Of a stretch of DNA of 64,000 bases, positions 17,040 through 54,990 are shown one piece after another; the stretch's first letter is position 1, and each line of letters opens with the position of its first letter. The position numbers and the translations under genes are program-made. The stretch is from positions 96,001 through 160,000 of the IMG/VR virus record IMGVR_UViG_3300032007_000003; one strand, given 5' to 3'. Under the pieces are notes generated by a model. That model was not told the DNA's origin and did no database searches. It was given only the letters and a program-made list of their open reading frames with translations. The DNA comes from a virus. Lineage: Duplodnaviria > Heunggongvirae > Uroviricota > Caudoviricetes.

Positions 17040-17789
17040 ATGAAAATAGTTAAAATAAACGAATCTCAAAAGAAAAGATTATTTGAAGCATATAGGGAAG
17101 GTTTCTCATTTGACGAGTTATCGGTGCTTGGAAATGATGCTTTTTCTGATGAGGAATATAGTGGAAAGTTACAATTCGAATATTGTAGGAAATGGTTGGG
17201 TGAACCAGTTGCAAGAGGTACTTCTAGATGCATATTCATGTTAAGTGATAATCTAGTTCTTAAGTTGGCATGCGGTAGATATGAGGCAGGAAAGGCTCAG
17301 AATCGTCTTGAATGTCAGTTATATGAGGATAATCCTTCACCTTTAATGGTGAGAATATTTGGAAATGATGATAATTTTTCATATGTAATTTGCGAGAATG
17401 TTGTACCTGCACAAGACATTGATTTTGAAAAGATTATAGATATTCCATTTTATTACAGATATTATAAACAAATGGGTTCTGAATATGTTAATTATTTTGA
17501 AAATCCAAAAGGAAGCTATAATGAAGTTCCTTTTAATGTACATGATGTAGTATGCTATTTAGAGGCAAACTATTGTGTTGGCGAAGGCTATTATCATAAG
17601 GAAATAGAAGAATACATAAGGAAAAACCCTTGGCTGAAAGAACTTAAGACATTCATCATGAATACACAGATTGGTGATTTAACTAAACCTGATAACTATG
17701 GCATTGTGAATAGAGATGGTAAACCAATGATTGTAATTCTCGATGCTGGAATGAACTTAGAAAATTGGGAGACATATTATCGTGGCTAA
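17040..17789 (+). CDS. Protein-kinase-like enzyme with N-terminal 'KINESQ' tag
   Basis: Gly loop 'ARGTSR', 'VLKLA' Lys, 'QNRLE' Glu, 'GDLTKPDNYG' catalytic loop, 'ILDAG' DFG equivalent. Confidence 0.7.
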   Translation: MKIVKINESQKKRLFEAYREGFSFDELSVLGNDAFSDEEYSGKLQFEYCRKWLGEPVARGTSRCIFMLSDNLVLKLACGRYEAGKAQNRLECQLYEDNPSPLMVRIFGNDDNFSYVICENVVPAQDIDFEKIIDIPFYYRYYKQMGSEYVNYFENPKGSYNEVPFNVHDVVCYLEANYCVGEGYYHKEIEEYIRKNPWLKELKTFIMNTQIGDLTKPDNYGIVNRDGKPMIVILDAGMNLENWETYYRG

Positions 17790-18324
17790 TTTAAAATTTA
17801 ATACAAAAAACATAAGACGTGTTCCGATTAATAGAAACAGTCTTTTTTATGATGCAGATATGTTTGCATTGGAGAGAGAAATTGGAAAGGACTATATCGA
17901 ACAAGATATGGGGCAAACTGTTGTGCTTTATCAAGTTGATGCCTCACAAACACAAACTGATGCTGTGTATGGTGAAACAGACACTGATAATGTGGCATTC
18001 AAGACGCCAGTTGAAATTCCATGTACATATAAGATTGAACAACCAGAGTTAAAGTCATATGACAAATCAAAGCAACTTGGTACTTATATGAAAACAGGTA
18101 AACTCACCATAGGTGTATATCAAGAAACTCTTGTTGAACTTAATGTTGAGATTAAGAAGGGTGACTATATTGGTGTACAAATATCTCCAGAACATATGGA
18201 ATTCTTCGTAGTCAATAATGACGGTAAGAATAATTATGATAATGCTCATTCACTATGGGGCACAGTTCCATTGTATAGAACAATACAATGTTCACCAGTT
18301 GATACTAGTGAATTTAAGGCTTAA
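17782..18324 (+). CDS. Neck/head-closure protein (gp14-like)
   Basis: 'GQTVVLYQVD...DAVYGE....FKTPVEI', 'EIKKGDYI'; GTG start. Confidence 0.55.
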   Translation: MANLKFNTKNIRRVPINRNSLFYDADMFALEREIGKDYIEQDMGQTVVLYQVDASQTQTDAVYGETDTDNVAFKTPVEIPCTYKIEQPELKSYDKSKQLGTYMKTGKLTIGVYQETLVELNVEIKKGDYIGVQISPEHMEFFVVNNDGKNNYDNAHSLWGTVPLYRTIQCSPVDTSEFKA

Positions 18325-18356
18325 ACTAATATTTATATTAAAATACATATTTAATT

Positions 18357-18731
18357 ATGACACAGATTATAAGATTAACAGAATCAGATTTACATAAAAT
18401 CGTAGAAGAAACTGTAAGACGTACAGTTGATGAAGGTTGGGGCAAGGATGCTCTTAAGACAGCAGGACTTGGTGCAGCACTTGGTTTAGGTGCAGCTGGA
18501 ACACTTGCAACAGATAATCCAATCTCAAGAGGTCTTGATAGGCAATTCGCAGACCAAGAGGAAGTGGGAAGAGCATTCCCAGAGGATAGAGCAGAATTTG
18601 GTAAGGCTTTAAGTCCTAGAGGAAACGCTGAAGATAATACTATTTCTTGGGAAAAGGCTAATCAATTTGAAGGGAAGATTAGTAAAGCAATTACTGAATC
18701 AATTAACAAATACCTTAAGGAAAATGTGTAA
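18357..18731 (+). CDS. Tagged putative internal head protein with glycine-zipper segment
   Basis: 'IIRLTESDLHKIVEETVRRTVDEG' then 'AGLGAALGLGAAGTLA'. Late motif at 18329-18337. Confidence 0.6.
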   Translation: MTQIIRLTESDLHKIVEETVRRTVDEGWGKDALKTAGLGAALGLGAAGTLATDNPISRGLDRQFADQEEVGRAFPEDRAEFGKALSPRGNAEDNTISWEKANQFEGKISKAITESINKYLKENV

Positions 18732-18736
18732 TAAAG

Positions 18737-18769
18737 AAAGAGTGAGGAACAATCCCCACTCTTTTTTTT
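18737..18769. terminator. Bidirectional terminator
   Basis: AAAGAGTGAGGA-ACAA-TCCCCACTCTTT followed by a T-run. Confidence 0.75.
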
Positions 18770-18774
18770 GTTTT

Positions 18775-19989
18775 TTATTTTCTAGCTATTTGCTTATATA
18801 ATTCAACTCTATCCTTACATATTGCCTCAAGTGAATACTTGTCTTTAACAAAGTTATACAAATTGTCTTGTAGTTTCTTAAGCATATCCCTATCATTAGC
18901 AAGCTTATTGATGTACTTAGCCCATTGCTTATGATTCTTAGAAGAATCTACTAGAAGTGCAGTACCTTCCTCATTAATCTTACCACCTTTCTCAATCATA
19001 GGTACTAAATTAATGGTATATGCTCCAAAGTTCTGTGCTATAAATGCAGTATGAGTAAATCCACACTCAATTTCCTTAAGCTCAGATTTAACGCTATTAA
19101 ACTCATTCTCTTTCAATGGTGCGATAAGTACATCAACATTAGCATAGTGTGTGGCATATTTATTGATATCCCTAGTCCACATTCTACGGTATGATTCATT
19201 TGTGAATGGGTCATCAGTATATGCAATATATTTCATAAGGAAGTCCTTATGTTCTAGCGATACATTCTTATAGTTATCAGTGAAAATCTTCTCATAATCA
19301 CACCACACACTTTCCTCTGGCAGTATTGGACGTGTTGTCTTCTCACCAGTTTGTTGGTTATAGATTGTTCTATTACCTCTAGTATCGAAACCACATAATA
19401 CAAATTGTACCTTATCTTTATCGATTTGTTTTGCAATACCATCAAGTAATTGTAAATCCTTTAGGTGTGAAGAACCACAAATGATACCAACTCTAAGTTT
19501 ATCAGTAGGTGGTGTCTTTGGAACTGTATATTGTTCCTCATTTGGATTAATACCATTAGGGAATACCGCAACATTCTTATTATACTTCCTAAGCATATTA
19601 GCAAAGATTGGTGTTGTGGTTGTTACATAATCAGCCCTCTTTAAGTGATTAATAATTGGCTCATGCCATCTTTCCTTCTTTGCGGTTAGCGACATTGGAT
19701 GGTCTTCTCCAAGTTTAAAGTGGTCATCAACATCAATGATTACTGGTATGCCCAAGAACTTAATCATATCCATGATTTTACACTCTTTGTCAAGTTGCTT
19801 GTGTATGTGAATAAGGTCATATTGTTTTAAGAAAGTCTCAAGGTCTCCGTTTGGCATACTGTAAACAATATCTACATCAAATTCATCGCCATAGTGCTCT
19901 TGAATGTAAGTGTGTGGGTCTACTGAACGGAACTTACCCACACCAGTCCTATCACTAGGTATCACCAACATTTTAATTTTTTTATCCAT
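18775..19989 (-). CDS. GT-B glycosyltransferase
   Basis: 'IDVDD', 'ADYVTTTT', 'VFPNGI', 'DVLIAPL..NEFN..KSELK.IE'. Confidence 0.8.
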   Translation of the reverse strand: MDKKIKMLVIPSDRTGVGKFRSVDPHTYIQEHYGDEFDVDIVYSMPNGDLETFLKQYDLIHIHKQLDKECKIMDMIKFLGIPVIIDVDDHFKLGEDHPMSLTAKKERWHEPIINHLKRADYVTTTTPIFANMLRKYNKNVAVFPNGINPNEEQYTVPKTPPTDKLRVGIICGSSHLKDLQLLDGIAKQIDKDKVQFVLCGFDTRGNRTIYNQQTGEKTTRPILPEESVWCDYEKIFTDNYKNVSLEHKDFLMKYIAYTDDPFTNESYRRMWTRDINKYATHYANVDVLIAPLKENEFNSVKSELKEIECGFTHTAFIAQNFGAYTINLVPMIEKGGKINEEGTALLVDSSKNHKQWAKYINKLANDRDMLKKLQDNLYNFVKDKYSLEAICKDRVELYKQIARK

Positions 19990-20083
19990 ATTTTAATATA
20001 TTAAAACAATTATTGTCTTGTATTATTTTACAAATAATAACAAATTATTATGGATAAATCAATAATTAAAACAAAAAAGAGTG

Positions 20084-21507: not shown

Positions 21508-21516
21508 GTCTTAATA

Positions 21517-22363: not shown

Positions 22364-22765
22364 TTATAGTTCTTCAACCTTAGATTTACCCTCTAAAGTT
22401 TCGATTTTTGTATTTAATTTATCTCTTTTCTCTCTTAGTTTGTCCAATTTAGTCTTGTTGGCTTTCTCTTCTTTCTTTTTAGCAGCTTCCATTTGGTCTT
22501 GAACACTCTGGTTAGTGCTTCCAACTGGAAACTCATTCTGAATCATGTATTCGGCATCAACCAATGTCTTTGTATATTGTAAGTCTATCTTCCATTCATT
22601 TCTGTATAGATGCTCATTCCTAGCCTCAATACCGAATCTTTCAAGACAAGTTTGTTTACCACCTATGCTAGCATTAGAAGATGGCTGCTGTGACTTCGTA
22701 CCACCCATTATATTCTCAATGGTATTGCCAATCTTTTTAAGTGTATTATCTATTGTGTTTGCCAT
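22364..22765 (-). CDS. Hypothetical late protein
   Basis: 'KQTCLERFGIEAR'. Confidence 0.6.
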   Translation of the reverse strand: MANTIDNTLKKIGNTIENIMGGTKSQQPSSNASIGGKQTCLERFGIEARNEHLYRNEWKIDLQYTKTLVDAEYMIQNEFPVGSTNQSVQDQMEAAKKKEEKANKTKLDKLREKRDKLNTKIETLEGKSKVEEL

Positions 22766-24149
22766 TGTTCAACTTTATTAATTGTTCTTCAGTTATATAT
22801 ATTTTCTTACTGTTTTTCTTGATTTCTTCAGCAATACGGTCTAATGACTTACTTCCACCGACAACAAATATTGATGATAAATCACCTCTCATATGATAAA
22901 CATCCAATGCTCTGTTAACCAAAACCAATACTTTTTCTGGTGGTAAGTCTTCATTATATTCTGATAATACCTTCTCTAGAGGTTCCATTCCAAAGTCTGT
23001 AAACGCATCAGTTCCATCTGGCATTATCATCCAGTCATCAAATCCTATATAATATAACACATCGAACTCATTTGCAACCCAGAATATTTTACCACTATTA
23101 TTATCTATTTCGATTCTTTGATTCTTTTTTGTTGTGTTAAATTGCTCAATATAACTTATAATATCTCCATACATTTCATTAAATTTAGCCTTGTTTCTAT
23201 TCAAATCTTGCTGTGCTACCATTCTATCAGCTTCATTTTGAGAAATCCAAGGGAAATATGTTTGACCATATTTATCCACCGCTTCATCAATGAATATGTG
23301 TTCACCACCACATAATCTTACAACTTCTTCTGGAGTTATTTCAATTTTTGTCTTTTCTGAATCAACATGTGTTTCTCTATTACTGAAATAAGACTCAATA
23401 AAATCTGCATATTCATCATATGGAAAATAAGAACTATGCCCAGCTATATTGGTATTAGCCCTAAGAATTGCTGTATTTTTCATAATTATTCCCATCCATT
23501 GATAGATATATCTAACAGGAAACGTTGTCAATTTTCCATATTTTGTGAATTCCCTTAAAGCCTTTGCATACATGTCTGGATTAATCAACACACCCCAACT
23601 CTGTTTTCCATTTGGATTTGACATGAACTCATTGAAAACATAGTTTTCATCATATTCATAAATGTAATCATAATAAGGGTGTTCCTCATCAAAAGATTCG
23701 TTTATCTTCCTACTCTCAGTTTTAATCTTAGCTGTTGGTGTACTTTGCTTATTGATTTTTACATCACTAGGCTTAACACTTGCGGTAGGCTTTGGAGGTT
23801 CTATTGGAGATACCTCTGCTTGACTCCTAGCCCTTTCTACAGTTTTCTTGTAGAAATTGTAAGCTTTTTGACCACCTTGCGTTATATCGTTAGGATTCAT
23901 TCTCTGCATTCTTTTCTTTGCATCCTCGACACTAACATAGCTAGTATTCTGTTCCTTTCCATTCAAATTATCATTACCTTTCTTGTTATATGCCTTGGTA
24001 GACGCAAGACTCTTAAGGTTCTTGAGGTTATTTTTGGGCATGACTTTTTCTAGCGCATTATACCATGCACTATAGTATTGTCTATCCTTCAATGGAACTG
24101 GAGCCTTTCTTCTAGTTACCTTTTGTGAATCCTCTAAAAATAATGCCAT
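22746..24149 (-). CDS. Multi-module hypothetical late protein with C-terminal tag
   Basis: Ends 'KKIYITEEQLIKL'; internal 'KINES'. Confidence 0.6.
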   Translation of the reverse strand: MALFLEDSQKVTRRKAPVPLKDRQYYSAWYNALEKVMPKNNLKNLKSLASTKAYNKKGNDNLNGKEQNTSYVSVEDAKKRMQRMNPNDITQGGQKAYNFYKKTVERARSQAEVSPIEPPKPTASVKPSDVKINKQSTPTAKIKTESRKINESFDEEHPYYDYIYEYDENYVFNEFMSNPNGKQSWGVLINPDMYAKALREFTKYGKLTTFPVRYIYQWMGIIMKNTAILRANTNIAGHSSYFPYDEYADFIESYFSNRETHVDSEKTKIEITPEEVVRLCGGEHIFIDEAVDKYGQTYFPWISQNEADRMVAQQDLNRNKAKFNEMYGDIISYIEQFNTTKKNQRIEIDNNSGKIFWVANEFDVLYYIGFDDWMIMPDGTDAFTDFGMEPLEKVLSEYNEDLPPEKVLVLVNRALDVYHMRGDLSSIFVVGGSKSLDRIAEEIKKNSKKIYITEEQLIKLNNGKHNR

Positions 24150-24151
24150 TG

Positions 24152-24400
24152 TTAAATTGTATTTGATGATTTTCTACCACCTACAGCACCCCACTGTTGT
24201 GGAGATTGTGCGTCTGCGAATTTCTCAGTATCCATTGGATTAGCCTTCTTAGGGCTTCCGTCCTTATCAGTTATTGTAGGTTGAAGCTCAACTTTGTCCA
24301 AACCATCATATTCTGGAATTGTACTCGTTCCAAAGTCTTGGTCTGTTACGCTTTCAAATAATCTTGTATACTGAGATTCATTCAAATTAATTATTTTCAT
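24152..24400 (-). CDS. Small tagged late protein
   Basis: 'MKIINLNESQYTRLFES'. Confidence 0.6.
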   Translation of the reverse strand: MKIINLNESQYTRLFESVTDQDFGTSTIPEYDGLDKVELQPTITDKDGSPKKANPMDTEKFADAQSPQQWGAVGGRKSSNTI

Positions 24401-24419: not shown

Positions 24420-24433
24420 TATAAATATTTATA
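24420..24433. promoter_or_regulatory. Palindromic bidirectional late promoter
   Basis: Perfect palindrome TATAAATATTTATA between divergent genes, about 20 nt from each start. Confidence 0.7.
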
Positions 24434-26445: not shown

Positions 26446-27099
26446 ATGCCAAGCAAGAGTAAAGCGCAGCAGAGATTCTTCGGAATGGTAGATGCCTATA
26501 AGAAGGGTGAAATGAAGAATGCTAGCAGCAAGATAAAGAAAGCAGCAGATGGAATGCCAATGAGTGATGTCAAGGATTTTGCTGAGACAAAGCATAAGGG
26601 ACTCCCAGAGAAGGTTGATGAAAATATCATAAGATTGACCGAGAACGACCTTCACAGAATGGTGATGGAAGTGGTAAATCGAATGATAACTGAAAGGAGA
26701 GAGGGAGACCATGAATTTGTAAAGGGTAAGGATGGATATTCACAATATTACATAAATCACGGCAATAAAACAGTATCTGCTATACATGGTTATCCAAGAG
26801 CTGGAAAGAACTATGCAAAGAAACATGGTTATGAATATCATGATTGTGTGGATGAATCTGTAGAAATGGAAGATGTACCACAAGACCATATCTTCTCTGA
26901 GAAAGAAATGCAGTGGCTTTATGATAACCAAGACAAGTTGAGTCCAATACAGCAGAAGGTTCTAAATGCTGGAATGTGGGTTCGTGCTCGTCAAGCAAAT
27001 TATCATGGTTACGCAAAGAGGTGGTCAAACATCATCCTTAAGAATGGTGAAACCTATTATTATGAAAGTAACGGAGAAATAAGAAAAACTGGAACATAA
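26446..27099 (+). CDS. DUF3008-like N-terminus plus internal tag and cargo modules
   Basis: 'MPSKSKAQQRFFGMV...VKDFAETKHKGLPEKV' then 'IIRLTENDLH'. Confidence 0.65.
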   Translation: MPSKSKAQQRFFGMVDAYKKGEMKNASSKIKKAADGMPMSDVKDFAETKHKGLPEKVDENIIRLTENDLHRMVMEVVNRMITERREGDHEFVKGKDGYSQYYINHGNKTVSAIHGYPRAGKNYAKKHGYEYHDCVDESVEMEDVPQDHIFSEKEMQWLYDNQDKLSPIQQKVLNAGMWVRARQANYHGYAKRWSNIILKNGETYYYESNGEIRKTGT

Positions 27100-37304: not shown

Positions 37305-38332
37305 AGATAAACCTCATCAATTTGCTGGGCATTACTTAAGTGCCTAGCAATTTCTTTATATCCACCTTTCTGATACAAAGAAGATGGGTCTTCATCCCCT
37401 TCAACTGGTATGTATCTCACCTTACCATATAATCTTCCATGATTAAGGAATTTATAGATTTCCTTTACAGTGCTAAAGGCATCGGCATCAAGGAACACGT
37501 TTACATTACCATTCGCCTTTGTGATTAAGTCCCAATATAGCTTATATTCTTTATTGAGTGATTTACCCAATAATGGTACTGAATTAGGTACTACGATGTG
37601 GTCAAAAGTTCCCTCTACCAATGTAATATCTGCATCCCATTGTATTTTATTCTCGTTAAATATGATTTCCTTTTTCTTTGCAAGTGGGTTATCATATTTA
37701 ACCCTTTCAAATCCTTCTTTCTTTGGTAAATAATCTCTACCAACCCAGTAGTTAAGTTCATCGTATTCGTTATACGATGGTATAATTATCCTATATGAAG
37801 ATTTCTTCCATTTCTTTTCTTCTTCTTTCTCAGTGAATCCTATTCCATATTGATTAATTATATTCCATCCAATACCTCTTTCATTGAGATACCTCATAGC
37901 ACCTTTATTATAATATTTACCTTCCTTAAATGGTTTGAAACTAGGTGGAAATTTAAGGTCTTCCTTTTCAATAATGGAAGTATCGATATTGAAGTCGTTT
38001 GATGAGAAATTAAGTTTATATAATTCACTATCTCTGATTGTACGAATAATATCCTTATACTCTTGTAGTAAGTTATCATTGCCATACATTCTAATAAGTT
38101 TTACAATAGTACCACTCATGTGCTCATCCATTGATGAGCAAGACCAACAATTAAATAATTGAGATTTGATATTGAGTTCTAAATTAAATTTTCTAGCTTC
38201 TGTTATTCCATTTCTTTCAATACATTTTGGACAAGGAAATTGATATTGAAAATTGTCATTATCAAATCCACTTTTTGATTCCCCTAGAATCAATACTAAT
38301 ATGTCGTAAATTTTTTTAATTTCGTCAATCAT
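37298..38332 (-). CDS. DNA primase (zinc finger plus TOPRIM)
   Basis: 'CPKC...CWSC', 'YLNERGI', 'RIIIP', 'LVEGTFD', 'FLDADA', 'DP'. Confidence 0.88.
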   Translation of the reverse strand: MIDEIKKIYDILVLILGESKSGFDNDNFQYQFPCPKCIERNGITEARKFNLELNIKSQLFNCWSCSSMDEHMSGTIVKLIRMYGNDNLLQEYKDIIRTIRDSELYKLNFSSNDFNIDTSIIEKEDLKFPPSFKPFKEGKYYNKGAMRYLNERGIGWNIINQYGIGFTEKEEEKKWKKSSYRIIIPSYNEYDELNYWVGRDYLPKKEGFERVKYDNPLAKKKEIIFNENKIQWDADITLVEGTFDHIVVPNSVPLLGKSLNKEYKLYWDLITKANGNVNVFLDADAFSTVKEIYKFLNHGRLYGKVRYIPVEGDEDPSSLYQKGGYKEIARHLSNAQQIDEVYLQ

Positions 38333-39722
38333 TTTTTTTAATTTCTTTTAATAATCTCTCTTTTGTTTTGATTAAATTTTTGTTTTTAATATCTAAATGT
38401 GTATATTCTAATAACTTGATATTATGTTCTTCACAATATTTCTTTTTAATTTTGTCTCTTATTTGATTTAATTCATATTGTTTTTGCAGCGTTTTGGTAT
38501 CTTTTCCACCAAAGTTAATTGGTTTAAAATGTTGTTCTCCTTGACATTCTATTATTATATTTTCTTTTGGTAAATAAAAATCAGGTCTAAGTGCGCTTTT
38601 ATATTTTAATCCATCAAATGTTTTCTTTTCTTCAAAATCTATATTATTTTTGGTTAGTAACAATCTAACTTCATTTTCTAAACGATAGTTTTGTTTACAC
38701 TTCGGACAGCCACTTCCTTGTATGTGAGAATGAGGAGTAGTGAAAAAAGAGCCGTGTTCTATTCCGTTTGAATCTTTCTTATGACATATTATTTCTATCT
38801 TAGTTCTATTATTTTTATACTCAGATTTAGAATAGTCATATAATTCACCGTGTTTTTCTTTTGACCTTTTAATAAATTCTTCTGTGTTTATTGGTTGATT
38901 ATTTGCACATTTTGGGCATCCACTACCATCTAAATGACTTGATGGCGTTTGCCAAAATTCACCGTGTTTTGGACAAATTATACAAACTTTATCTAAGCTA
39001 TGTTTATATTTAACTTTTGAATAATCGTATTTATCACCATGAATATTTTTACTTTCTTCTATAAATTGTTCTGTAGTTTTGGTTAATATTTTTTTTATTT
39101 CTTCTAAACCACATTTGGGACATCCATTACCTTGCAGATGACTTGATGGTAACTGCCAGAAGTCGCCATGAATAGGACAAGTTATACAAACTTTTCCGTC
39201 TTCTCTTCTTTCTTCAAGATTGGTTTTTTCATATGAAAATCTATTATCGCCAAATATTTCTTTTGAGCGTTTTATAAAATCATTTGTGGAGATACTTCTT
39301 AATTTGCTTATTTTTTCACAAGCACATTTAGGGCATCCCATACCTTTTAAATGATTATCTGCTTGCTGAATAAAAGAACCATGAATTGGGCATATTATCT
39401 CTACGTTGTATCTGTTTCCTATGTATTTGGTTTTAGAATAATTATATTTGTTATTATGTATTTTGTTGGACTTATTTATAAACCACTCTGTTGTTTGTGT
39501 TTTATCTTGTCCAATTTTTTCAAAAGTACATTTTGGACATCCGTGACCAAGTAATACATTATTAGGAGTTTTCCAGAATTCACCATGAATTGGACAAATT
39601 ATACACACTCTACCCTTTTCGTCTCTATTATTCACATCAGCTTTTGACAAATCATATTTTGCGTTATATAATTCATTTACTCTTTTGATAAATTCTTCGT
39701 TTGTTAATTTTTTACCTTTCAT
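38325..39722 (-). mobile_element. Free-standing homing endonuclease (5 zinc-ribbon units plus PD-(D/E)XK)
   Basis: Repeated 'ICPIHG.F..P..HL.G.GCPKC'; 'PDFYLP..NIIIECQGEQH'. Confidence 0.82.
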
Positions 39723-39838: not shown

Positions 39839-39876
39839 TAATTGGAGATATTTATAAGAAATAAATTTTAGAAAAT

Positions 39877-40150: not shown

Positions 40151-41575
40151 ATGAGAAGAGTTGCATCATCAAGTGAATTTTTTGATATATTGGATAAGAT
40201 TGGTAATGGAAAGTTCGTTACCATCGGTTATGTGACTGGAGCAAACTTAGATGTTCCAACTGTCAGTAGAAGAAATCCAGCTACTAATAGAATGAAGAAG
40301 TATCCAGATTATACTGTATTTGGCGGTGAAGAAGAAATTGGAGCTTTAGTTAAGATTACTAGTTATAACATGAGGTATCTTAACAGAACCACCGTTGGTC
40401 AAAAATATGGTAAATTCAAAGCCTCAGCTAATGATATCAGAATCAATTTTGGTATTGACCCAATAGCTGATAAGGTTGGTTACAAACAAGGTACGAATTG
40501 GAGTCCAAATGGTCCAGAAATCTATAATGGTCAAAATGCGGATTTGCAATCTCATTCTTATAATCCTCAAAACATATTTGGAGTTAAGCCAAAAGGTGTT
40601 GTTTATGCAATTAACAAGGAGGGTCATATTATTAAGGAGCTTTCTCCTGAACAAGTTAGACCTTATCTTAAAGCAAAACGTGAAATTGATGGAGTTGCCG
40701 CATTGAGAAAAATGGGTGCAGAAGAGGATAGAATTCAAGACTATATTAATCAGATTAACAATTTGAAGTTTAAGTATATCAATTTTGAGTCGAATTCAAT
40801 TCTTTGGATTGCTGCAACAATTAATGGCGAAAAGATAGTTTACATTAACGATAACTTATATAGAGCAGTTGATGGTATTGATATAAATCCACAAGATTTC
40901 AGAGCAATTGCAAGAGAAAGATATCAAATAGATTTGAATGATTTACAAGAAATGACTAAGAAAACTATGGGTAAAAACATATTAAGACTAACTGAGACTG
41001 ATTTGCATAGAATGGTTATAGAGTCAGCAAAAAGAGTACTAAAGGAAATGGGTAGATATGATTCTGACCTTGATGCTGATGAAATCTATGGTGATAGGGC
41101 TGATAGAGAATATAGACAATCTATGGCAGACAAACTACATCAAGAAGAATGGGAAATGAGAAATCTCAGACTAAGGCAGAAATATCCTGGGAAATCCCCT
41201 GAATGGTATGAGGCAATGATTGACACATTTTATGAGAGTAAAAAATCAAAGAAAACCATTAAGGAGGATTGGAAACAAGCACCTTGGGAACAAGCAGACC
41301 CAATAGAAGACCAAGGTGAATATGGTGTAGAATCTTTCAAGAACAATCAAAACTATTCTCACTTTGCAGTAAACAAGGCAACAAATAAGATAGTTAATGG
41401 TTGGGATTATAGTGAGTATGACCCAAGCGAATTGAGACAGTTTAAGAAAGACTATTTTGATGCCGATATGATTGATTATGGCTTTAATCCTAAAGATTAT
41501 AAAATTGTTACTAGTAAGTTCCTTATTCGCCAAGGGATTAACCCAGATGATAATAACAATTGGGCAAACAGTTAA
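40151..41575 (+). CDS. Multi-module late protein with internal tag
   Basis: 'KNILRLTETDLHRMVIESAKRVLKEM' separates N- and C-terminal modules. Confidence 0.65.
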   Translation: MRRVASSSEFFDILDKIGNGKFVTIGYVTGANLDVPTVSRRNPATNRMKKYPDYTVFGGEEEIGALVKITSYNMRYLNRTTVGQKYGKFKASANDIRINFGIDPIADKVGYKQGTNWSPNGPEIYNGQNADLQSHSYNPQNIFGVKPKGVVYAINKEGHIIKELSPEQVRPYLKAKREIDGVAALRKMGAEEDRIQDYINQINNLKFKYINFESNSILWIAATINGEKIVYINDNLYRAVDGIDINPQDFRAIARERYQIDLNDLQEMTKKTMGKNILRLTETDLHRMVIESAKRVLKEMGRYDSDLDADEIYGDRADREYRQSMADKLHQEEWEMRNLRLRQKYPGKSPEWYEAMIDTFYESKKSKKTIKEDWKQAPWEQADPIEDQGEYGVESFKNNQNYSHFAVNKATNKIVNGWDYSEYDPSELRQFKKDYFDADMIDYGFNPKDYKIVTSKFLIRQGINPDDNNNWANS

Positions 41576-44302: not shown

Positions 44303-45076
44303 TTAAACATCAATATAAGTCGTTCTTTTATCTTCTTTATCCCAATATCTGATTATATAGTTGATGATTTTTGTTGTATCGTTTATGTTTTCTGCCTCGC
44401 ATACAATTTCACTTGAGAATGATAATTCCCCAAATCGTTTCTTATTCATAAATCCCAACACAGCAACGTAGGCATCACAAGCATCAAAGTTTTCCTTCTT
44501 AAGTTCACCGTTCCTATTGTAAAGCCACTCAATATCAGGGAAAACATCTGCCACCTTGCCTTGGATAACAGTTTTCTTATCGATAGTCCAAGGATAACCA
44601 CCAAACAATACTAGTTTACAATCCTTAATTTCCTTATGAATCTTTGAGAATTCATATTGTTTTTCATCCTTACCATATTTTCTTATTGACATAAGTTCTG
44701 GAAATGAATACTCTCTAGCATCGTATGATGATATGTAGTTTGGAACAATGCCTAGAATGTTATAAACGCAGTCTGAGACCATTCCATTGAAGCGTAGAAG
44801 GGTTGATACAGTTAAAACATTGTTACTTCTCATTAATGGCTCTTCAATTATAACTTCATCGACACCAAAGTCTTTATATTTTAGAACAAATTCTTCAAAT
44901 ATCTTTTTTTTCAAAAATAGTTGTTCTATTCCCTTTATTTTACTTGAAACTTTAGGACTGATGTGGGTAAGTTCAATTACTTTACCATATTCAGAGCCAT
45001 CATCTTCAAGTAGACATATACCAATACACTGGGTGGATATATCAAGACCCATTAAAATTGGATGATTGTTTCTCAT
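44303..45076 (-). CDS. RuvC-like Holliday junction resolvase
   Basis: 'LMGLDISTQCIG', 'VIIEEP', 'DACDAY'. Confidence 0.8.
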   Translation of the reverse strand: MRNNHPILMGLDISTQCIGICLLEDDGSEYGKVIELTHISPKVSSKIKGIEQLFLKKKIFEEFVLKYKDFGVDEVIIEEPLMRSNNVLTVSTLLRFNGMVSDCVYNILGIVPNYISSYDAREYSFPELMSIRKYGKDEKQYEFSKIHKEIKDCKLVLFGGYPWTIDKKTVIQGKVADVFPDIEWLYNRNGELKKENFDACDAYVAVLGFMNKKRFGELSFSSEIVCEAENINDTTKIINYIIRYWDKEDKRTTYIDV

Positions 45077-46004
45077 TTATAATTTCTTTTAATAACTCTT
45101 CTTTATTTTCGTAAACTTTGTAAGGATATTTAATTTCTAAATTACTATAGTAAAGTAGTTTAATATTGTTATTCTCACAAAGATTTAATTTTCTATTATC
45201 TCGTTTAACAGTTTCAATGTATTTCTTAGTACCACCAAAAAACTTAATTTCTTTAAAATGTTCTATCCCTTGGCATTCAATTGCTATGTTATATTCAGGC
45301 AGATAAAAGTCTAAACTTAATCTTTTTAGCCAAGGAAAGTCTTTTTTATTTGCTTGATGAATATATTCTATTTTATTATCATCTAACAACTTAATTATTT
45401 CTAATTCTAATTTACTACAAGAACATTTAGGACATCCGTGATTTAAAAGATGTACGTTTGGTTTTTGCCAAAATTCACCATGTTTAGGACAAATTATGCA
45501 AACTTCTGTGTGATTATTAATGTAATCTACTTTAGAATAATCATATTTATTACCATGAATTTTTTCTGCTATTGATATGAAATATTCATTATTTTTCCTT
45601 TTTACAATACTATTATTTTCATTTGCGCACTTTGGACATCCTTGTCCAGTTGAGTGATTTATGCAAGCTTGCATAAATGTTCCGTGTATTGGACATACTA
45701 TATTTAGTTTTGTATTTGAAGTAAGTTTTTTAGTGCTATCTATACTGTAGATATACTTTTCTCCGTGTGTTCTTTTAAATTTATCAAGCCACTCCTCATT
45801 ACTGTGTAAAACTCCACCATTACATTTTGTACACCCTCTACCTTTTGTGTGGTCTTGAGGTGCTTGCCAAAATTCGCCATGAATGGGGCATACAATACAC
45901 ACCTTAGTTTTGTTATTTATATAATCTACTTTTGAGTAGTCGTATTTACCATTATGAACTTTAGTAGATTCTTCTATAAACTCTTCTTTTGTTTTCTTCT
46001 TCAT
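45042..46004 (-). mobile_element. Free-standing homing endonuclease (3 zinc-ribbon units plus PD-(D/E)XK)
   Basis: 'CPIHGEFWQ', 'GCPKC', 'LDFYLPEYNIAIECQG.EH'. Confidence 0.82.
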
Positions 46005-46474: not shown

Positions 46475-48840
46475 TAGATGTAAAAAGTAAGGGTAGAATC
46501 AATGTACATTGGAATGTATCACCTTATGACTATAATAAGGAAAAGGAGAAATCAATAATTGCAAAGTTCAGTAAAAAATACAGTTTACCAAAGGAAAGAA
46601 TTAAGGTAATACCAGAATTTTTAATGGTTGATGATGAAGGTAAAGAGATTTCTCTCAATGCTGATGTGATACAGAATGTTCAAGACCCACAATTTCAAAT
46701 TAAGCTATTCGAATCGTATCTTAAGACAAAGAATATTGCAAATTATGACTTTGACCTAATAAAGAAGATAGATGCAGATATTAATGGAAAAATCGATTAT
46801 CAAGTATACGACAAGTACAGAAGGTATTCTATCAAATGGATACGCTGGAGTAACTTCCTAAGTTATGGCTCTGATAATTATTTTGATTTTACAAACATTC
46901 ATGGATTAACATCATTAAGTGGTGAAAATCAGAGTGGTAAAACAACATTATCAATTGACTTGATTCATTTCTTGCTGTTTGGTAAGACTGAAAAGGTTGC
47001 AACTCAAGATAAAATATTTAACAAACACTTACCAAAAGAAACAAATGTTATTGTTGAAGGATGTATAACTATTGATGGTGTGGATTATGTTATTAAGAGG
47101 ACATTATCAAGACCATCATTGGATAGAAGAAGTGATAAGAGTAAGACAACTCAGAAGGTTGAATATTATAAGATTATAGGTGATTCCAAGGAGGAACTTG
47201 AAGATTATGATGTAGAGAATCAACAAGAGGAAAATGGTGTTCAAACCAACAAAGCCATTAAGGATGCAATTGGTATTGAAAGTGACTTTGATTTGATTAT
47301 GTCGGTTACAGAGTCAACTCTAGATGACCTTGTGAATAAGAAAGAGGCTGATAGAGGAAGACTTTTATCAAGATGGATAGGATTGTTACCACTTGAAGAA
47401 AAAGACAAGCTAGCAAGGGAAAAATTCAATTCTGAAATCAAACCAATGTTGTTATCCAATAGGTATAACGAGGAAACAATGCTTCAAGAGATTGAGGCAT
47501 TTGAGTTACAGAAAAAGACTTTGACTGAGGAAATAGAGAAATTAAATAAAGAAAATAAAGCCTTAGATAAAGAAATAACAACTTTAGAAAAGAATAAGGA
47601 AACATTATTAGCTTCAAAGTCTATAATTGACAATAGCATTCTTAAGATTGATGTTACTACATTAAATAAAAAGATAGAAGATAGTATATTTAATGGTAAG
47701 AAAAAGAAAGAAGAAATTGAAGATATTAGTAAGGAACTCAGTAGAATTGGAGATATTGAATTCTCTGTTGAGGAATATGACACTACTCAAGCAGAACTGA
47801 CAAAACTTACTGGTGAAATTGCTGTTATGAGGGAAAGGTATAAGAATACCGAGCATAATATACAGCATCTTAAATCAAGCGAGATTTGTCCTACTTGTGG
47901 AAGAAAATTAGAAAATGTAGACAATTCAGCAAAGATAAACGAATTTACAAAGGAACTTGAGAAACTTGCTATTGACGGTAAGAAAAAAAGTGAATTAAAG
48001 GTGAAGTTAACAACTAAGATTGAACAACTCAAGGCTGATAGGGAAAAATACAATAGAAAATCGAATCTGACTGTTAAGAAAGCAGCATTGGAAGTTAATG
48101 TTGAAAAGTTACGTGCAGAGTATCAAGAATACAAGGCAACGAAAACAGAATATGATAAAAATAGCGAAGCAATTGATAAAAATAACGCAATAGATATTCA
48201 GATTCGTAATAATGATGTATTTATACGAGATAAGAGAAATACCAAAGATACCAATACAAATATAGTTACGAGGAATGAGACTGAGATAAAAAACTATAAT
48301 AGACAAGTAGAGGATAGAAGAGAGGTAATTAAGAAGTTACAAGAAGAGGAAAAACTTGTTAGAAACTGGAAGATTTATCTCGAACTTGTTGGTAAGGATG
48401 GTATTTCAAAGATGGTTCTAAGAAAGACATTACCAATAATCAACGCAAAGTTATCTAAGTTATTGAATGATGTATGTGACTTTGATGTTGAGGTAGCAAT
48501 AAACCAGAAGAATGATGTGATGTTCTATCTAATTAAGGATGGTGTCTATTCAGACTTGAGTAGTGGTAGTGGATTTGAGCTTACAGCTAGTGGCATTGCA
48601 TTAAGAACTGTTCTTTCAGAACTTTCAACAATACCAGTTTCAAATATACTAACATATGATGAGGTATGGGGACGTGTAGCGAAAGCTAATTATGAGAATA
48701 TGAAGAATCTTATTGAGAAGGTTGCAAAACAATATGAGGCAGTTTTCTTGATAAGTCACTCAGACGAGGTACGTGATTGGTGTGATTGTCATGTATCTGT
48801 TGTAAAGGAAAATAACATTTCAAAGGTTGTTTTGAAATGA
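46471..48840 (+). CDS. SbcC/Rad50/gp46-like recombination ATPase
   Basis: 'NFLSYG', Walker A 'GENQSGKTT', zinc hook 'CPTCG', 'LSSGSGFE', 'YDEV', 'ISH'. Confidence 0.92.
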   Translation: MIDVKSKGRINVHWNVSPYDYNKEKEKSIIAKFSKKYSLPKERIKVIPEFLMVDDEGKEISLNADVIQNVQDPQFQIKLFESYLKTKNIANYDFDLIKKIDADINGKIDYQVYDKYRRYSIKWIRWSNFLSYGSDNYFDFTNIHGLTSLSGENQSGKTTLSIDLIHFLLFGKTEKVATQDKIFNKHLPKETNVIVEGCITIDGVDYVIKRTLSRPSLDRRSDKSKTTQKVEYYKIIGDSKEELEDYDVENQQEENGVQTNKAIKDAIGIESDFDLIMSVTESTLDDLVNKKEADRGRLLSRWIGLLPLEEKDKLAREKFNSEIKPMLLSNRYNEETMLQEIEAFELQKKTLTEEIEKLNKENKALDKEITTLEKNKETLLASKSIIDNSILKIDVTTLNKKIEDSIFNGKKKKEEIEDISKELSRIGDIEFSVEEYDTTQAELTKLTGEIAVMRERYKNTEHNIQHLKSSEICPTCGRKLENVDNSAKINEFTKELEKLAIDGKKKSELKVKLTTKIEQLKADREKYNRKSNLTVKKAALEVNVEKLRAEYQEYKATKTEYDKNSEAIDKNNAIDIQIRNNDVFIRDKRNTKDTNTNIVTRNETEIKNYNRQVEDRREVIKKLQEEEKLVRNWKIYLELVGKDGISKMVLRKTLPIINAKLSKLLNDVCDFDVEVAINQKNDVMFYLIKDGVYSDLSSGSGFELTASGIALRTVLSELSTIPVSNILTYDEVWGRVAKANYENMKNLIEKVAKQYEAVFLISHSDEVRDWCDCHVSVVKENNISKVVLK

Positions 48841-49609: not shown

Positions 49610-50032
49610 ATGGGAAAGAAAGAAACGTCAAAAAAAACAACTAAGAAAAAGACAACCAAGAAGAGTGTTATAAAAGAAGTTGCGGATAAGATAATTGAAT
49701 CACAAGAGGTTAAGATGGATTTGATTGAAGAAGACCCACCAATTGACCAAGAACTTTTAGAAGAAGTATTAAGTGTTGGTGGTGAAATCATTGAGAAGAA
49801 GGAACTTGAATATGAACCAACACAAGAAAAAATTGAAAAGACTATAGAGTTTATGAATGGAGACCCAAGTGTTATTATTCCTTCAAATGATATTCAACTT
49901 AAAAAGGCTGAAACAATTGAAGAGGCGGCATTCAAGGATACATTTAAGAATGTTAAAATAGAAAATAAGAGGAATAGCAGAATTGACAGAACATTTGGCT
50001 ATTCTTGGAACGGAACAGAAATAGATTATTAA
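49610..50032 (+). CDS. Hypothetical late protein
   Basis: ATATTTATA at 49586-49594. Confidence 0.6.
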   Translation: MGKKETSKKTTKKKTTKKSVIKEVADKIIESQEVKMDLIEEDPPIDQELLEEVLSVGGEIIEKKELEYEPTQEKIEKTIEFMNGDPSVIIPSNDIQLKKAETIEEAAFKDTFKNVKIENKRNSRIDRTFGYSWNGTEIDY

Positions 50033-50037
50033 TCAAA

Positions 50038-50613
50038 ATGAGCGAGAACAGTATGACAAGAAAAATGCTCGATACTTTGAGAAGAGGAAGAATTGAGCAA
50101 GCAAAATGGGCAGCAGAGCAGTTTGTTAATGAAGCAAAGGAAGAGGACAATTTCATTACAAGAGCTAAAATTTTAATGGAAGAGGCTATTGACGATAGTA
50201 AAAAAAAAATCTTAACTGAGGAAGAAGAGGTTGATGATAACCATAAGGATTCTTTCGAGATTAATAAGGGAACTCCACAATTCGGTGATGTAAGAGTATC
50301 ACAAGAGGAAGCTATCAGAAAAGCCATTAACAATAATGTACAATTCTCAGATAATGCTTTGAAGTACTATCCAAAAGCTGATGATATGACATTGGATGGC
50401 AAGATACCTTCATTAAATCTCGATTTTCAGTTTAGATATAATGACCCAAGTGGTGATGGTTGTTATGTTTGGACTGATGCAATGCAGCTTACAGATACCA
50501 ATGCAAGAACATTGGGAAAAATTAGGGATGCATTCTCAAATTGGAAGGATTCAATCACACAAGATGGAGACCTTATGGAGAAGTTAAAGAAAGCAGCAGA
50601 AAATAAAGATTAA
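50038..50613 (+). CDS. Hypothetical late protein
   Basis: ORF with 'ILTEE' motif. Confidence 0.6.
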   Translation: MSENSMTRKMLDTLRRGRIEQAKWAAEQFVNEAKEEDNFITRAKILMEEAIDDSKKKILTEEEEVDDNHKDSFEINKGTPQFGDVRVSQEEAIRKAINNNVQFSDNALKYYPKADDMTLDGKIPSLNLDFQFRYNDPSGDGCYVWTDAMQLTDTNARTLGKIRDAFSNWKDSITQDGDLMEKLKKAAENKD

Positions 50614-50637
50614 TAATTGTTAAAAATTGGATTGATG

Positions 50638-50670
50638 TTTGGTCAGTTCAATTTTTTTTTGTATATTTAC
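50638..50670 (+). promoter_or_regulatory. Bacteroidota-type promoter overlapping a hairpin
   Basis: TTTG-N20-TATATTTAC. Confidence 0.7.
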
Positions 50671-50693
50671 ACCATGAATAAAATAATAGAATT

Positions 50694-51835: not shown

Positions 51836-51897
51836 AGGGTGCTAGAAATAGCATCCTTTTTTTGTTATTATGATATTTATATAAAAAATAATGTTAT

Positions 51898-52107
51898 ATG
51901 ATTTCAGAGAGCAGAATAAGAGAGATTATCAATGAGGAAATAAGCAAGACTGAGGTTGAATCGATTGTATCCAACCGTCTATCTTCTGCCTATAATTCAA
52001 GGGACTTTAAGAAAGCGGTTAAGGATATAACGGCAGATGTAATTGAAGACTTATTCCGCACCTTGTGGAATCGTAGCAGCACATGGAAGGGAGGAGTTAC
52101 TAGATGA
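51898..52107 (+). CDS. Small late protein
   Basis: 'ISESRIREIINEEI'; GATATTTATA at 51872-51881. Confidence 0.6.
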   Translation: MISESRIREIINEEISKTEVESIVSNRLSSAYNSRDFKKAVKDITADVIEDLFRTLWNRSSTWKGGVTR

Positions 52108-52499
52108 AGTTAATACACATCAATGAGGCAGTATTCAACAGACTCCTAGAGGATAATAGAAGACCACCTTTTCAAGACTTTTACGACAGCGTTGTTGCGT
52201 TCATAGAGGGAATGCGCAAAGACCCTATAAGAACAGTCCCAAACGAGCTTTTAAAAGGTTGTGGACTTCATAATGGAGAGCTTAGAAAGAAACTTTATGA
52301 CTATGGGATAATCACCAAGGATGAGAGAATTGATGAACCATATGACGAAACAACTGGTAGCCAACAATCTCGTTATTACGTAACATACGATTGGTCTGAG
52401 AGAATTAAGAAGGAAATGAAGGATAAGGAGAGGATTGGGAATCCAATGAAAAAAGCATTTATAAGGAAACTATATAATGATTTCTTTAATATAAAATAA
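52104..52499 (+). CDS. Tagged late protein
   Basis: 'MKLIHINEAVFNRLLED'. Confidence 0.6.
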   Translation: MKLIHINEAVFNRLLEDNRRPPFQDFYDSVVAFIEGMRKDPIRTVPNELLKGCGLHNGELRKKLYDYGIITKDERIDEPYDETTGSQQSRYYVTYDWSERIKKEMKDKERIGNPMKKAFIRKLYNDFFNIK

Positions 52500-52524
52500 A
52501 ACTTAGTAAAAAAAGAAAAAAAAT

Positions 52525-52695
52525 ATGAAAGACAAAGTAAGAACTCTTGATTTTTATGGCTTTGATGATGATAATACAATGTATGATGTAAACTCATACT
52601 CTATTTCAAGCGTTAAGGAGGTTAAGAATAAGAAATACATCAGGCCTGATGAAGAAGAACCAATCACTAGTGGTGATACCGAAACTAATAATTAA
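52525..52695 (+). CDS. 56-aa hypothetical protein (not in ORF track)
   Basis: MKDKVRTLDFYGF...TNN*. Confidence 0.5.
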   Translation: MKDKVRTLDFYGFDDDNTMYDVNSYSISSVKEVKNKKYIRPDEEEPITSGDTETNN

Positions 52696-52721
52696 TTATT
52701 AAAATAGAAAGAGATAAAATC

Positions 52722-53126
52722 ATGAATAAACCTATTCAATTAACAGAGCAAGACCTTCATATGTTGGTGGAGGACGCAGTAAGAGCATACCTTACAGAGA
52801 ATGGTATGGACGAAGGATGGTTTGGTGACAAGTGGAATCAAACTAAGACAGCAGCTAATACCATGTTCCAAGGAAACAAAGGAACTGGTTTGAAACAGAA
52901 ATTCAATAATGCTAGACAGAATTGGAACACCCAAGGCCAGTTGAATGGATTGAACAATTTAAGACAGCAACTTGAGCAGTTCATCGATACTGGACAGCTA
53001 AATCCACAGATGACAATTGCGCAACTTATTGGTGGTAAGTACAATGGTAACAAGTTTGGTAGAATGAGTGGTATGATTGGAAATAGACAATCTCAGATTT
53101 CTAAAAGAGGTGGTCAATACAACTAA
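52722..53126 (+). CDS. Tagged late protein
   Basis: 'IQLTEQDLHMLVEDAVRAYLTE..MDEG'. Confidence 0.65.
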   Translation: MNKPIQLTEQDLHMLVEDAVRAYLTENGMDEGWFGDKWNQTKTAANTMFQGNKGTGLKQKFNNARQNWNTQGQLNGLNNLRQQLEQFIDTGQLNPQMTIAQLIGGKYNGNKFGRMSGMIGNRQSQISKRGGQYN

Positions 53127-53149
53127 CGTAATAAAATCCAAGAAAGAGG

Positions 53150-53539
53150 CTAGTCTTTCTTGGATTTTTTCTTAAGTGGACAACTGCTTATTGTAATTCC
53201 TAAATTAAATTCCGTATTTAGTTGATGCATCTTTTTTCTAAACTGAAACCCATGTTTAAAGAAAAGATATTCATTTTTCTTTTTAATTGACTTCACGTAA
53301 TGATGAATCATTTCGTGGACAATTACCTCACGCAATACTTCCTCAGTCCAATCAACGTCATTGGTAATCCATATTTTGCCGTGAACAGTACCATCATCAT
53401 CTTGTTTGTTTGTATAACGACCATATGTACATTTATCTAATTTAATATAATGACAGTCGCACATAGATAATTCCCCATTAAAGTACATCTTATTGTACTT
53501 TTTGTATAATTCTTTTATTAATTCCTTTGTAACTTTCAT
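53150..53539 (-). CDS. Short SprT-like metalloprotease
   Basis: 'YNKMYFNGEL', 'IVHEMIH', 'HGFQF'. Confidence 0.8.
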   Translation of the reverse strand: MKVTKELIKELYKKYNKMYFNGELSMCDCHYIKLDKCTYGRYTNKQDDDGTVHGKIWITNDVDWTEEVLREVIVHEMIHHYVKSIKKKNEYLFFKHGFQFRKKMHQLNTEFNLGITISSCPLKKKSKKD

Positions 53540-53543
53540 AATG

Positions 53544-53575
53544 TAAATATACGAAATCTTTTATAAATAGCCAAA
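53544..53575 (-). promoter_or_regulatory. Bacteroidota-type promoter with a late-like motif in its spacer
   Basis: Minus strand reads TTTG-N20-TATATTTA(C); the spacer contains CTATTTATA. Confidence 0.65.
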
Positions 53576-53651
53576 TATTAAGTGTTAAATTATGTTTAAT
53601 AAAAATTTTGGTATAAGTGTGATATTTATATTTAAATAAATGTCTTTAGAT

Positions 53652-53993
53652 ATGAACAAGATAATTAGACTTACAGAGAGTGACCTACATAATATTGTAA
53701 AGGAAGCTGTATATAGAATATTGAAAGAAGATGGTGAAATTGGTGGTGGCGGTGCTACAAACTGTGTTGGTATCAACGTAGGTGGTGCTGCTGGACAAGC
53801 TAAGAACCATATTGATGCACCTGCTTTTGGTGGGAAAAATAAAAAAAAAGTAGGAGGAAACGCATTTAGTGAGCCAATTATGAGACAAGCTCATAATCTT
53901 GGTGATGTAACTAAAGCCCCAGCAAATCAAGTTGATATGAAGCCAGCATTGGATAGAACTCCTGGTTTCTCAATGGGCACACGCAAGAAGTAG
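53652..53993 (+). CDS. Tagged late protein (Gly-rich)
   Basis: 'MNKIIRLTESDLHNIVKEAVYRILKED'; GATATTTATA at 53621-53630. Confidence 0.65.
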   Translation: MNKIIRLTESDLHNIVKEAVYRILKEDGEIGGGGATNCVGINVGGAAGQAKNHIDAPAFGGKNKKKVGGNAFSEPIMRQAHNLGDVTKAPANQVDMKPALDRTPGFSMGTRKK

Positions 53994-53999
53994 TTTATT

Positions 54000-54161
54000 A
54001 TGATAGATTACGAGGCAAATGAGGAAACCATCAAGAAGGTTAGGGAAATCGATGAGCAGATAAAAGAAGAGGACTCTAAGGAAGTTGCTGATGGTGGAAA
54101 ATTGACAAGGCTCATGTTTGAGCAGTTATTAAGAGGAATTTATATAAATCAATTTAAATAA
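54000..54161 (+). CDS. 53-aa hypothetical protein (not in ORF track)
   Basis: MIDYEANEETIKK...QFK*. Confidence 0.5.
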   Translation: MIDYEANEETIKKVREIDEQIKEEDSKEVADGGKLTRLMFEQLLRGIYINQFK

Positions 54162-54168
54162 TAATATT

Positions 54169-54990
54169 ATGATAGCAAAAATTAACGTAGGCGATTTGAG
54201 AAGAGTTATCAAGGAAAGTCAAAACGAGTTTAAGCCAACAGTTTTTGGAATGGATAAGTCGAAAGAAATCAATGACAAGGCTTACAGTGATATCAAGAAG
54301 GAAACTGAGAAGTATGATGGTGGTCTCACCAAAGAGAAAAAACAAATTGGTGGTGGCATCTCAGCTACTGACAACAAAGGTATGCACGATTTGACTTATG
54401 ATAACATTAATAAGCCTTTCCAAGACAGAGTTAAGTCTCAGATGAAAGGTTATCCATCAAAGGATGCCGAAACCAAACACAAGGATGATGAGTTTGGGAA
54501 TGCAACATTTGACAATGATGGAAATATTTATAATGCAGCTAAAGACCATGCTAAAGCTGTTAAGGACGGTAAGGACGCAGCAGTTGAAATTGGTCTAACT
54601 GGTAGTAAACTTAATAAAACTGACGTAGAAAAACAAAGAAAAACAATGGGAGAATCAAAGAAAATCAAAATGCTTACCTTTAAGAATACACAATTTATTT
54701 CTGAGAATCATATGCTGACAAGAATTCCAGATGAATATAAGACAGAGGGTAATAGATTTGTGATGAAAGACAGTGCCGATAATCAATATCTTGTTGAATG
54801 GCATGCTAAAGAGCCAATGGTTACTAAGAAACCAAATATGACCTTGGTAAATGAACAGAAGGAAAGAATGAAACAGCTTTGGGGTTACAAATGCGCAGAG
54901 GCTAAGACTTCAACTTCTAGTTTTAGAGTACAAGAGGACAAGGGTTTCGCAGACATGGTAAACAAGGCTAGAAAGTTAATGAAGGATTAA
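54169..54990 (+). CDS. Hypothetical late protein
   Basis: 'KINVGDLRRVIKES' tag-like start. Confidence 0.6.
   Translation: MIAKINVGDLRRVIKESQNEFKPTVFGMDKSKEINDKAYSDIKKETEKYDGGLTKEKKQIGGGISATDNKGMHDLTYDNINKPFQDRVKSQMKGYPSKDAETKHKDDEFGNATFDNDGNIYNAAKDHAKAVKDGKDAAVEIGLTGSKLNKTDVEKQRKTMGESKKIKMLTFKNTQFISENHMLTRIPDEYKTEGNRFVMKDSADNQYLVEWHAKEPMVTKKPNMTLVNEQKERMKQLWGYKCAEAKTSTSSFRVQEDKGFADMVNKARKLMKD

Follow-up and report, generated by a model that had tools for sequence, protein, structure and literature searches.

A conserved 26-residue helical motif on unrelated late proteins of a T4-like jumbo phage, a candidate prohead address

A peptide shared by unrelated proteins

The stretch of DNA analysed here (the window) comprises 64,000 nucleotides (nt), bases 96001-160000 of the 412,435-bp IMG/VR record IMGVR_UViG_3300032007_000003, which has a G+C content of 34%. 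Five genes of the window share a short peptide, which we call the class A motif (consensus MKKIIRLTESDLHRIVKESVNRILKE); in the whole genome it occurs 11 times in 10 proteins. The window copies start at nt 18369, 26629, 40982, 52734, and 53664 by regular expression, and a profile hidden Markov model (HMM) agrees with all five places, which had been put forward in a sequence-only reading of the window. The record also encodes a prohead protease of the T4 gp21 family (Peptidase_S77; genome 49857-50303, 82.8 bits compared to a cut-off of 27, in the gene 49746-50447), a major capsid protein of the gp23 family (PF07068, 214 bits), a large terminase, and a portal protein. From these head proteins, we conclude that the source is an uncultured T4-like jumbo phage.

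All five window carriers of the class A motif are read from the plus strand, and three of them bear it at the N-terminus. The gene at 18357..18731 encodes 124 amino acids (aa), with the motif at residues 5-28 (nt 18369-18440) ahead of a Gly/Ala-rich body, and that at 52722..53126 encodes 134 aa, with the motif at nt 52734-52805 ahead of a basic, Gln/Asn/Gly-rich body. The third carrier, at 53652..53993 (113 aa; motif at nt 53664-53735), is also readable from 53640, the listed start of its open reading frame (ORF). The gene most likely starts at the ATG at 53652, because the 113-aa orthologues start there and because the spacing between promoter motif and ATG is then 30 nt, like that of other units; the motif would then stand at the very N-terminus. 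More than 140 full-length orthologues of this carrier were found in metagenomes. An AlphaFold2 model made with 63 orthologues predicted a helix at residues 9-27 (pLDDT about 80) and was of low confidence for the rest of the protein, although the body is conserved among the orthologues.

The other two window carriers hold the motif internally. In the 217-aa protein encoded at 26446..27099, a DUF3008 domain (residues 4-57) precedes the motif (residues 62-85; nt 26629-26700), which is followed by a C-terminal module. In the 474-aa protein encoded at 40151..41575, the motif helix occupies residues 278-301 (nt 40982-41053). The model of this protein predicts a folded N-domain (residues about 20-270), the motif helix between two low-confidence hinges, a variable linker, and a small folded C-domain (about 400-470), and members of its family have a near-invariant L265-x-E267 just ahead of the first hinge. 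Comparison of the 474-aa fold with the PDB yielded nothing convincing, with a best Foldseek E of 0.02 and a best VIA-align Z of 5.9, within noise. Thus, of the N-terminal, internal, and C-terminal positions that the sequence-only reading had ascribed to the motif, the first two occur in the window, and the third was found in database relatives and not in the window.

A strict pattern matched 11 times in the proteins of the genome and not once in 200 residue shuffles. The profile HMM built from the copies recovered the 10 carriers at E values of 1e-13 to 1e-23, and the next protein scored E 0.04. When the motif was masked, every pairwise BLAST comparison among the carriers gave E > 0.3, implying that their bodies are unrelated, as had been claimed.

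A logo of 124 distinct instances reads M-K-K-I-I-R-L-T-E-S-D-L-H-R-I-V-K-E-S-V-N-R-I-L-K-E (26 residues), with near-invariant T8, E9, D11, L12, H13, V20, L24, and E26. Its shape is that of a short stretch in extended conformation (IIRL) that leads into an amphipathic, N-capped helix (TESDLH-IVKESV-RIL-E). In the final triplet, the first position (P3) is Leu or Ile in 117 and the last (P1) is Glu in 114 of the 124 instances, whereas the middle residue is free; the column directly past the motif is noise, rich in Gly, Asp, Glu, and Ser. The same L/I-x-E ending and the same stop in conservation were seen in 131 internal and C-terminal copies. As a sequence, this ending matches the L/I-x-E rule of T4 gp21. 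A second triplet, L-T-E, ends at motif residue 9, close to the end of the 10-residue T4 leader. The motif is strongly biased towards the N-terminus: in the IMG/VR set, 106 of 122 motifs (87%) lie within 12 residues of the start.

Identical residues of the copies are encoded by identical codons in 46% of pairs, where codon usage predicts 40%. With synonymous sites thus random, selection acts on the peptide and not on the DNA, and a DNA cassette or recent duplication was rejected as the origin of the repeat. Behind and ahead of the peptide, by contrast, the proteins vary: by body, 120 distinct IMG/VR carriers group into 71 families. Moreover, modules are exchanged at the motif in relatives, in keeping with the mobile-module behaviour proposed for it. 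One relative of the 474-aa protein keeps the N-domain and the motif and then takes on the module found at the C-terminus of the DUF3008 carrier at 26446-27099 (E 1e-40), and two others end 3-5 residues past the motif; in another phage, an extra 128-residue domain is fused ahead of the motif in the family of the carrier at genome position 47953. These swaps, fusions, and truncations imply that the motif is a joint for adding, dropping, and swapping modules. Exchange exactly at the motif would also be expected if the repeat were a mere recombination joint or a recently copied DNA cassette with no function as a peptide. However, synonymous sites are randomized while the peptide is near invariant over thousands of clusters, and this explanation is extremely improbable.

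The DUF3008 piece of the 217-aa carrier (window 26446-26620) is matched by five PHROGs that cover it alone (57 residues) and place it at varied positions in proteins of 91-587 aa. These matches imply that DUF3008 is, by its sequence distribution, a portable module in its own right.

Promoter motifs, leaders, and neighbouring genes

Two upstream motifs dominate the genome: the Bacteroidota-type TAnnTTTG, often within TTTCGTATATTTGCA (112 genes), and ATATTTATA (74 genes). These two promoter-like classes divide the genome into blocks. ATATTTATA peaks 20-30 nt ahead of start codons genome-wide, and 15 exact copies lie in the window compared to 3.8 expected. All seven relevant window units begin with the exact 9-mer, which stands 25-31 nt before the first ATG in every unit that holds a carrier. 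On the plus strand, it lies at 18329-18337 for the carrier at 18357 and at 53622-53630 for the carrier at 53652, and the unit holding the 474-aa carrier starts with it at 39848. Genome-wide, all 10 class A carriers found by the HMM scan and all three carriers of a second leader, class B (see below), belong to ATATTTATA units (13/13), compared to 172 of 572 other genes (Fisher p 7.5e-6), which upholds the claim that every carrier sits in a unit of this kind. Since ATATTTATA also precedes the capsid, scaffold-like, protease, terminase, and portal genes, it is likely a late promoter.

Three carriers lie within the head gene block itself. The carrier at genome position 40383 directly precedes the terminase gene, and those at 47953 and 48325 lie between the portal and protease genes, the place taken in T4 by the genes of the small core proteins gp67 and gp68. 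In a 348-kb relative (G020), 33 nt separate the end of the protease gene from the start of a 179-aa carrier, and the scaffold-like gene lies within 4 kb of 22 of the 77 motif loci.

These neighbourhoods bear on an explanation in which the helix is a docking tag for some other late hub, such as a phage chaperone, a factor that helps to assemble the tail or baseplate, or an adaptor for late regulation or degradation, and is not removed by the head protease. Most window carriers are found among late genes that do not belong to the head (helicase, glycosyltransferase, fibre-like), carrier bodies are conserved among orthologues, and the conservation of both the polar and the hydrophobic faces of the helix (T8, D11, H13, K17, E18, and S19) points to one specific partner without indicating its identity. 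We nevertheless consider docking to such a hub unlikely: the strongest conserved neighbours are head genes (scaffold-like, protease, portal, and terminase), no chaperone or other enzyme recurs beside the carriers, and the cliff in conservation at L/I-x-E fits the protease rule.

The scaffold-like protein of this genome (50620-52068, outside the window) is encoded between the protease and capsid genes and has no match in PHROG or Pfam. It has a helical 50-residue N-terminus ending in LLSE, followed by a long Asp/Glu/Gly-rich stretch, and there is a loose similarity between KVVRESLLDY in this N-terminus and the latter half of the class A motif. A 323-aa ORF resembling homing endonucleases, inserted between the carrier at 48325 and the protease gene, lies outside the window (genome 48707-49678, minus strand); N-termini like that of this ORF (KxxTxEEF...) occur in the window at 1849, 38325-39722, and 45042-46004. 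In G020, the protease gene (locus L059, 2-1783) is an ORF of about 600 aa in which the halves of the S77 domain are split by a large insert, apparently an intein that contains a homing endonuclease.

Between the class A carriers at 52722 and 53652, the window encodes a SprT-like zinc metalloprotease (53150..53539, minus strand; Pfam E 9e-11), and a SprT-like gene lies between carriers again in G020 (L059, 2352-2870). Such an arrangement would fit a motif that is the substrate of the neighbouring SprT-like protease or the recognition site of a modifying enzyme. However, SprT-like genes are near only 7 of the 77 motif loci, the genes within 4 kb of these loci included no other recurrent enzyme family, and the motif has no Cys and no Ser/Thr-rich or Gly-rich core of the kind typical of modified peptides, which makes this explanation decidedly improbable.

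The class B leader begins three further window proteins: a 249-aa protein of phrog_4301 (unknown function) encoded at 17040..17789 (plus strand; ATATTTATA at 17011), whose leader MKIVKINESQKKRLFE contains I-N-E and L-F-E; an 82-aa protein encoded at 24152..24400 (minus strand; ATATTTATA on that strand at 24420-24428), with the leader MKIINLNESQYTRLFE; and a 131-aa protein encoded at 52104..52499 (plus strand), with the leader MKLIHINEAVFNRLLE. Their common pattern is MK-h-h-x-h-NE-x4-RL-F/L-E, and these N-termini are among the most similar of the genome (11/16 and 8/16 identities). The class A profile did not detect the class B leaders, and in four relatives class B is carried only by orthologues of the same three proteins. 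On these two grounds, we rejected the proposal that classes A and B form one tag; class B is, judged by profile and distribution, a second, small leader type and not a variant of class A. The sequence-only reading had also assigned the C-terminus of the protein encoded at 22746-24149 to class B and had proposed weaker versions of the tag at 51898, at 54169, and in the tail of the SprT-like protein. None of these survived the profile search, in which 54169 scored best at E 5.7 and the others were undetected.

A third N-terminal leader, which we refer to as class C-like, was noticed at window 51898-52107 (MISESRIREIINEEIS) and at genome position 387117 outside the window (MMNKERIREIIREEVD), with 9 of 16 residues identical. 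The gene with MMNKERIREIIREEVD lies directly upstream of the gene for a 661-aa carrier with two class A motifs (locus L005; genome 387803-389788), whose N-terminus gave a sub-threshold match to DUF5856. In a subset of carriers, among them this one and many database proteins, a second conserved element, (I/Y)GD(T/S)PKGQ(Y/F)(M/A)LG(R/K)L, stands directly behind the motif. In the window, ATATTTATA at 51873..51881 (plus strand) heads a unit (51898-53126) in which the class C-like, class B, and class A leaders are each borne by one gene, and the region from 51.9 to 54 kb is a cluster of small late genes bearing three different leaders. By analogy, this cluster recalls the variable internal-protein loci of T-even phages.

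Distribution among phages and databases

When 1.84 billion representative proteins were searched with the profile, the class A motif was found in 6148 clusters at E <= 0.001, of which 500 passed E <= 1e-10. IMG/VR contains 186 stretches that encode it. Five complete genomes of 295-413 kb have 9-20 copies each, and motif-bearing contigs of 80-130 kb are 24-48% fragments of genomes of this type. Of the seven motif-bearing records that are at least 90% complete, six encode an S77 protease.

No named function accompanies this large family. Names looked up for the ten top database matches returned none, and no Pfam or PHROG family covers the motif in the window carriers, in those outside the window, or in 113 database carriers. 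The only domain matches in carriers were DUF3008 ahead of one motif and the sub-threshold DUF5856 noted above; an ADP-ribosyltransferase-like domain considered for a protein of locus L031 was undetected by Pfam. Searched against the PDB, the motif matched only de novo designed helical repeats, and against the ESM Atlas, only unnamed viral clusters. In the literature, the motif is printed in no paper, and a comparative paper on jumbo phages is silent on it.

Resemblance to idealized designed helical-repeat proteins would be expected if the helix associated with itself or with its relatives, bundling the carriers into a structure like an inner body or a condensate, with tandem copies as cross-linkers and cleavage optional. 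Many database proteins indeed have 2-3 copies of the motif separated by low-complexity linkers that are predicted to be disordered, and carrier bodies are mostly predicted to be disordered as well. By contrast, 118 of the 120 carriers in the unbiased IMG/VR locus set have a single copy, and the conserved polar residues and the extended IIRL are atypical of a generic coiled coil. Self-association is therefore rather improbable; moreover, it overlaps with capsid targeting instead of excluding it.

In 596 Gb of prokaryote genomes, a degenerate DNA pattern for IIRLTE-S-DLH had three true matches, each on a contig of a metagenome-assembled genome (MAG). Two of these, of 88 and 69 kb (L097 and L100), were binned into rumen Prevotellaceae or Prevotella MAGs, and the third is a 2-kb contig labelled Clostridium. 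The motif-bearing MAG contigs are probably phage contigs that were binned along with their host. The bins of rumen Prevotella and Prevotellaceae hint at a host range of rumen or gut bacteria of the Prevotella type.

Known packaging systems and a candidate prohead address

In T4, the internal proteins IPI, IPII, and IPIII and the Alt propeptides bear a 10-residue capsid targeting sequence that gp21 removes at an L/I-x-E site (Mullaney and Black 1996, as cited in PMC9026906 and PMC3012670). The T4 internal proteins are diverse, have only this targeting sequence in common, and are loaded into the scaffolding core (PMC3012670; PMC9026906); other leaders of this kind are found in T4-related phages (PMC9026906; PMC3012670). 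The class A motif is similar in being a short shared peptide, mostly N-terminal, on unrelated, fast-evolving small late proteins and in ending in L/I-x-E. The setting is also similar: both the protease (gp21 family) and the capsid protein (gp23 type) of the phage are of the T4 kind, and the carriers are scattered, with some beside head genes. By contrast, the motif has 26 residues instead of 10, continues as a long conserved helix past its first L-x-E, and has no sequence similarity to the T-even leader. Moreover, it also occurs internally, in tandem, and C-terminally, and it is found on 9-20 carriers per genome and in thousands of metagenome clusters. Because no sequence homology was found in the phage records searched and the lengths differ, the motif appears to be an analogue of the T-even leader and not a member of that group by descent.

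Other systems resemble the present one less closely. The jumbo phages phiKZ, 201phi2-1, and SPN3US have ejection or inner-body proteins with propeptides, a gp21-related protease, and S/A/G-x-E sites, of which a propeptide may contain several (PMC9026906; PMC5694885; PMC7411985). Phages of the phiKZ group likewise load many head proteins and cut after Glu in a short motif, whereas here P3 is Leu or Ile and the bodies are not families of paralogues; a shared conserved helix is not described for that group. Phage polyvalent proteins are giant chains of recognizable enzyme domains that are thought to be delivered with the DNA and whose modules are shuffled between phages (Iyer et al. 2017, as cited in PMC7824862). 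Most carriers described here are instead small, single-module proteins in which known domains were not found. Encapsulin cargo-loading peptides, and the segment at the C-terminus of the HK97 protease that targets it to the capsid, dock diverse cargo inside an HK97-fold shell. These peptides are likewise short and portable, but they are C-terminal, are as a rule not cleaved off, and are unrelated in sequence to the class A motif.

From the match to the features reported for T4 internal proteins, we favour, with even confidence for and against, the reading that the class A motif is a capsid or prohead-core address, subject to trimming by the S77 protease, and serves as this lineage's own counterpart of the T4 capsid targeting sequence. 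Such a T4-style role had been suggested for the window proteins, and the features that could be examined in sequences agree with it for class A; a single tag spanning classes A and B does not hold. In the mechanism that we envisage, the helix would dock its carrier onto the assembling prohead core late in infection, probably by binding the scaffold-like protein or else the capsid protein on its inner face. Peptidase_S77 would then cut after the invariant Glu of the terminal L/I-x-E, and possibly also after L-T-E at residue 9, releasing a small, mostly disordered cargo, or the separate modules of multi-module proteins, within the head. The capsid protein aligns with the solved T4 capsid structures, mature T4 gp23 being matched from about residue 72, and likely has its own N-terminal propeptide site, for which LIYE/A at residue 60 is a candidate.

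Several observations weigh against a trimmed prohead address. With its 26 residues and the strong conservation of both its faces, the tag differs from the 10-residue T4 sequence, and its internal and tandem copies are ill-suited to a simple N-terminal leader. L/I-x-E triplets are common, making up about 1.4% of positions, and because the predicted end of the helix coincides with the putative cut site, the L-x-E at the motif end may be structural rather than a cut site. Most window carriers are not beside head genes. A tblastn search of 50,697 GenBank phage records with two-copy carriers, in a collection whose T-even content was unchecked, gave no true match, nor was the motif found in any cultured phage. 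The motif-bearing record G032 is 95% complete and has no S77 match; in this 317-kb IMG/VR record (locus L085), gp23 was found only as a 93-aa open frame, and G032 may use another genetic code, and so be misread with table 11, or may be more divergent. Finally, no effector domain was recognized in any cargo by Pfam, PHROGs, or structure searches.

A broader form of the prohead-address reading is tentative, and we hold it to be more doubtful than probable. In a rumen and gut clade of T4-like jumbo phages, the helix would serve as a universal plug-in address to the prohead, and the cargo behind or around it would be cut free on one or both sides, giving an exchangeable arsenal of thousands of mostly disordered proteins delivered by the capsid. 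That such cargo would act as injected effectors is pure conjecture, because the carrier bodies have no recognizable effector domain.

What is distinctive about this system is the combination of a long, extremely conserved helix with a very large family. If the motif is a capsid address, a function would be named for at least 6148 protein clusters that belong to no family, or for 9-20 genes in each phage of 300-400 kb. The T4 principle of a shared leader, variable cargo, and release by a protease would then have arisen anew around a different, much longer peptide and would have come to include multi-module proteins. The motif would also flag those genes of the abundant rumen and gut phages that are likely delivered into Prevotella-type hosts, and which would be prime candidates for anti-defence or takeover functions, and it would provide a ready-made packaging tag for foreign proteins in the engineering of Bacteroidota phages. 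Should the capsid reading prove wrong, a peptide of 26 residues with such conservation across so many unrelated proteins must still have one specific partner.

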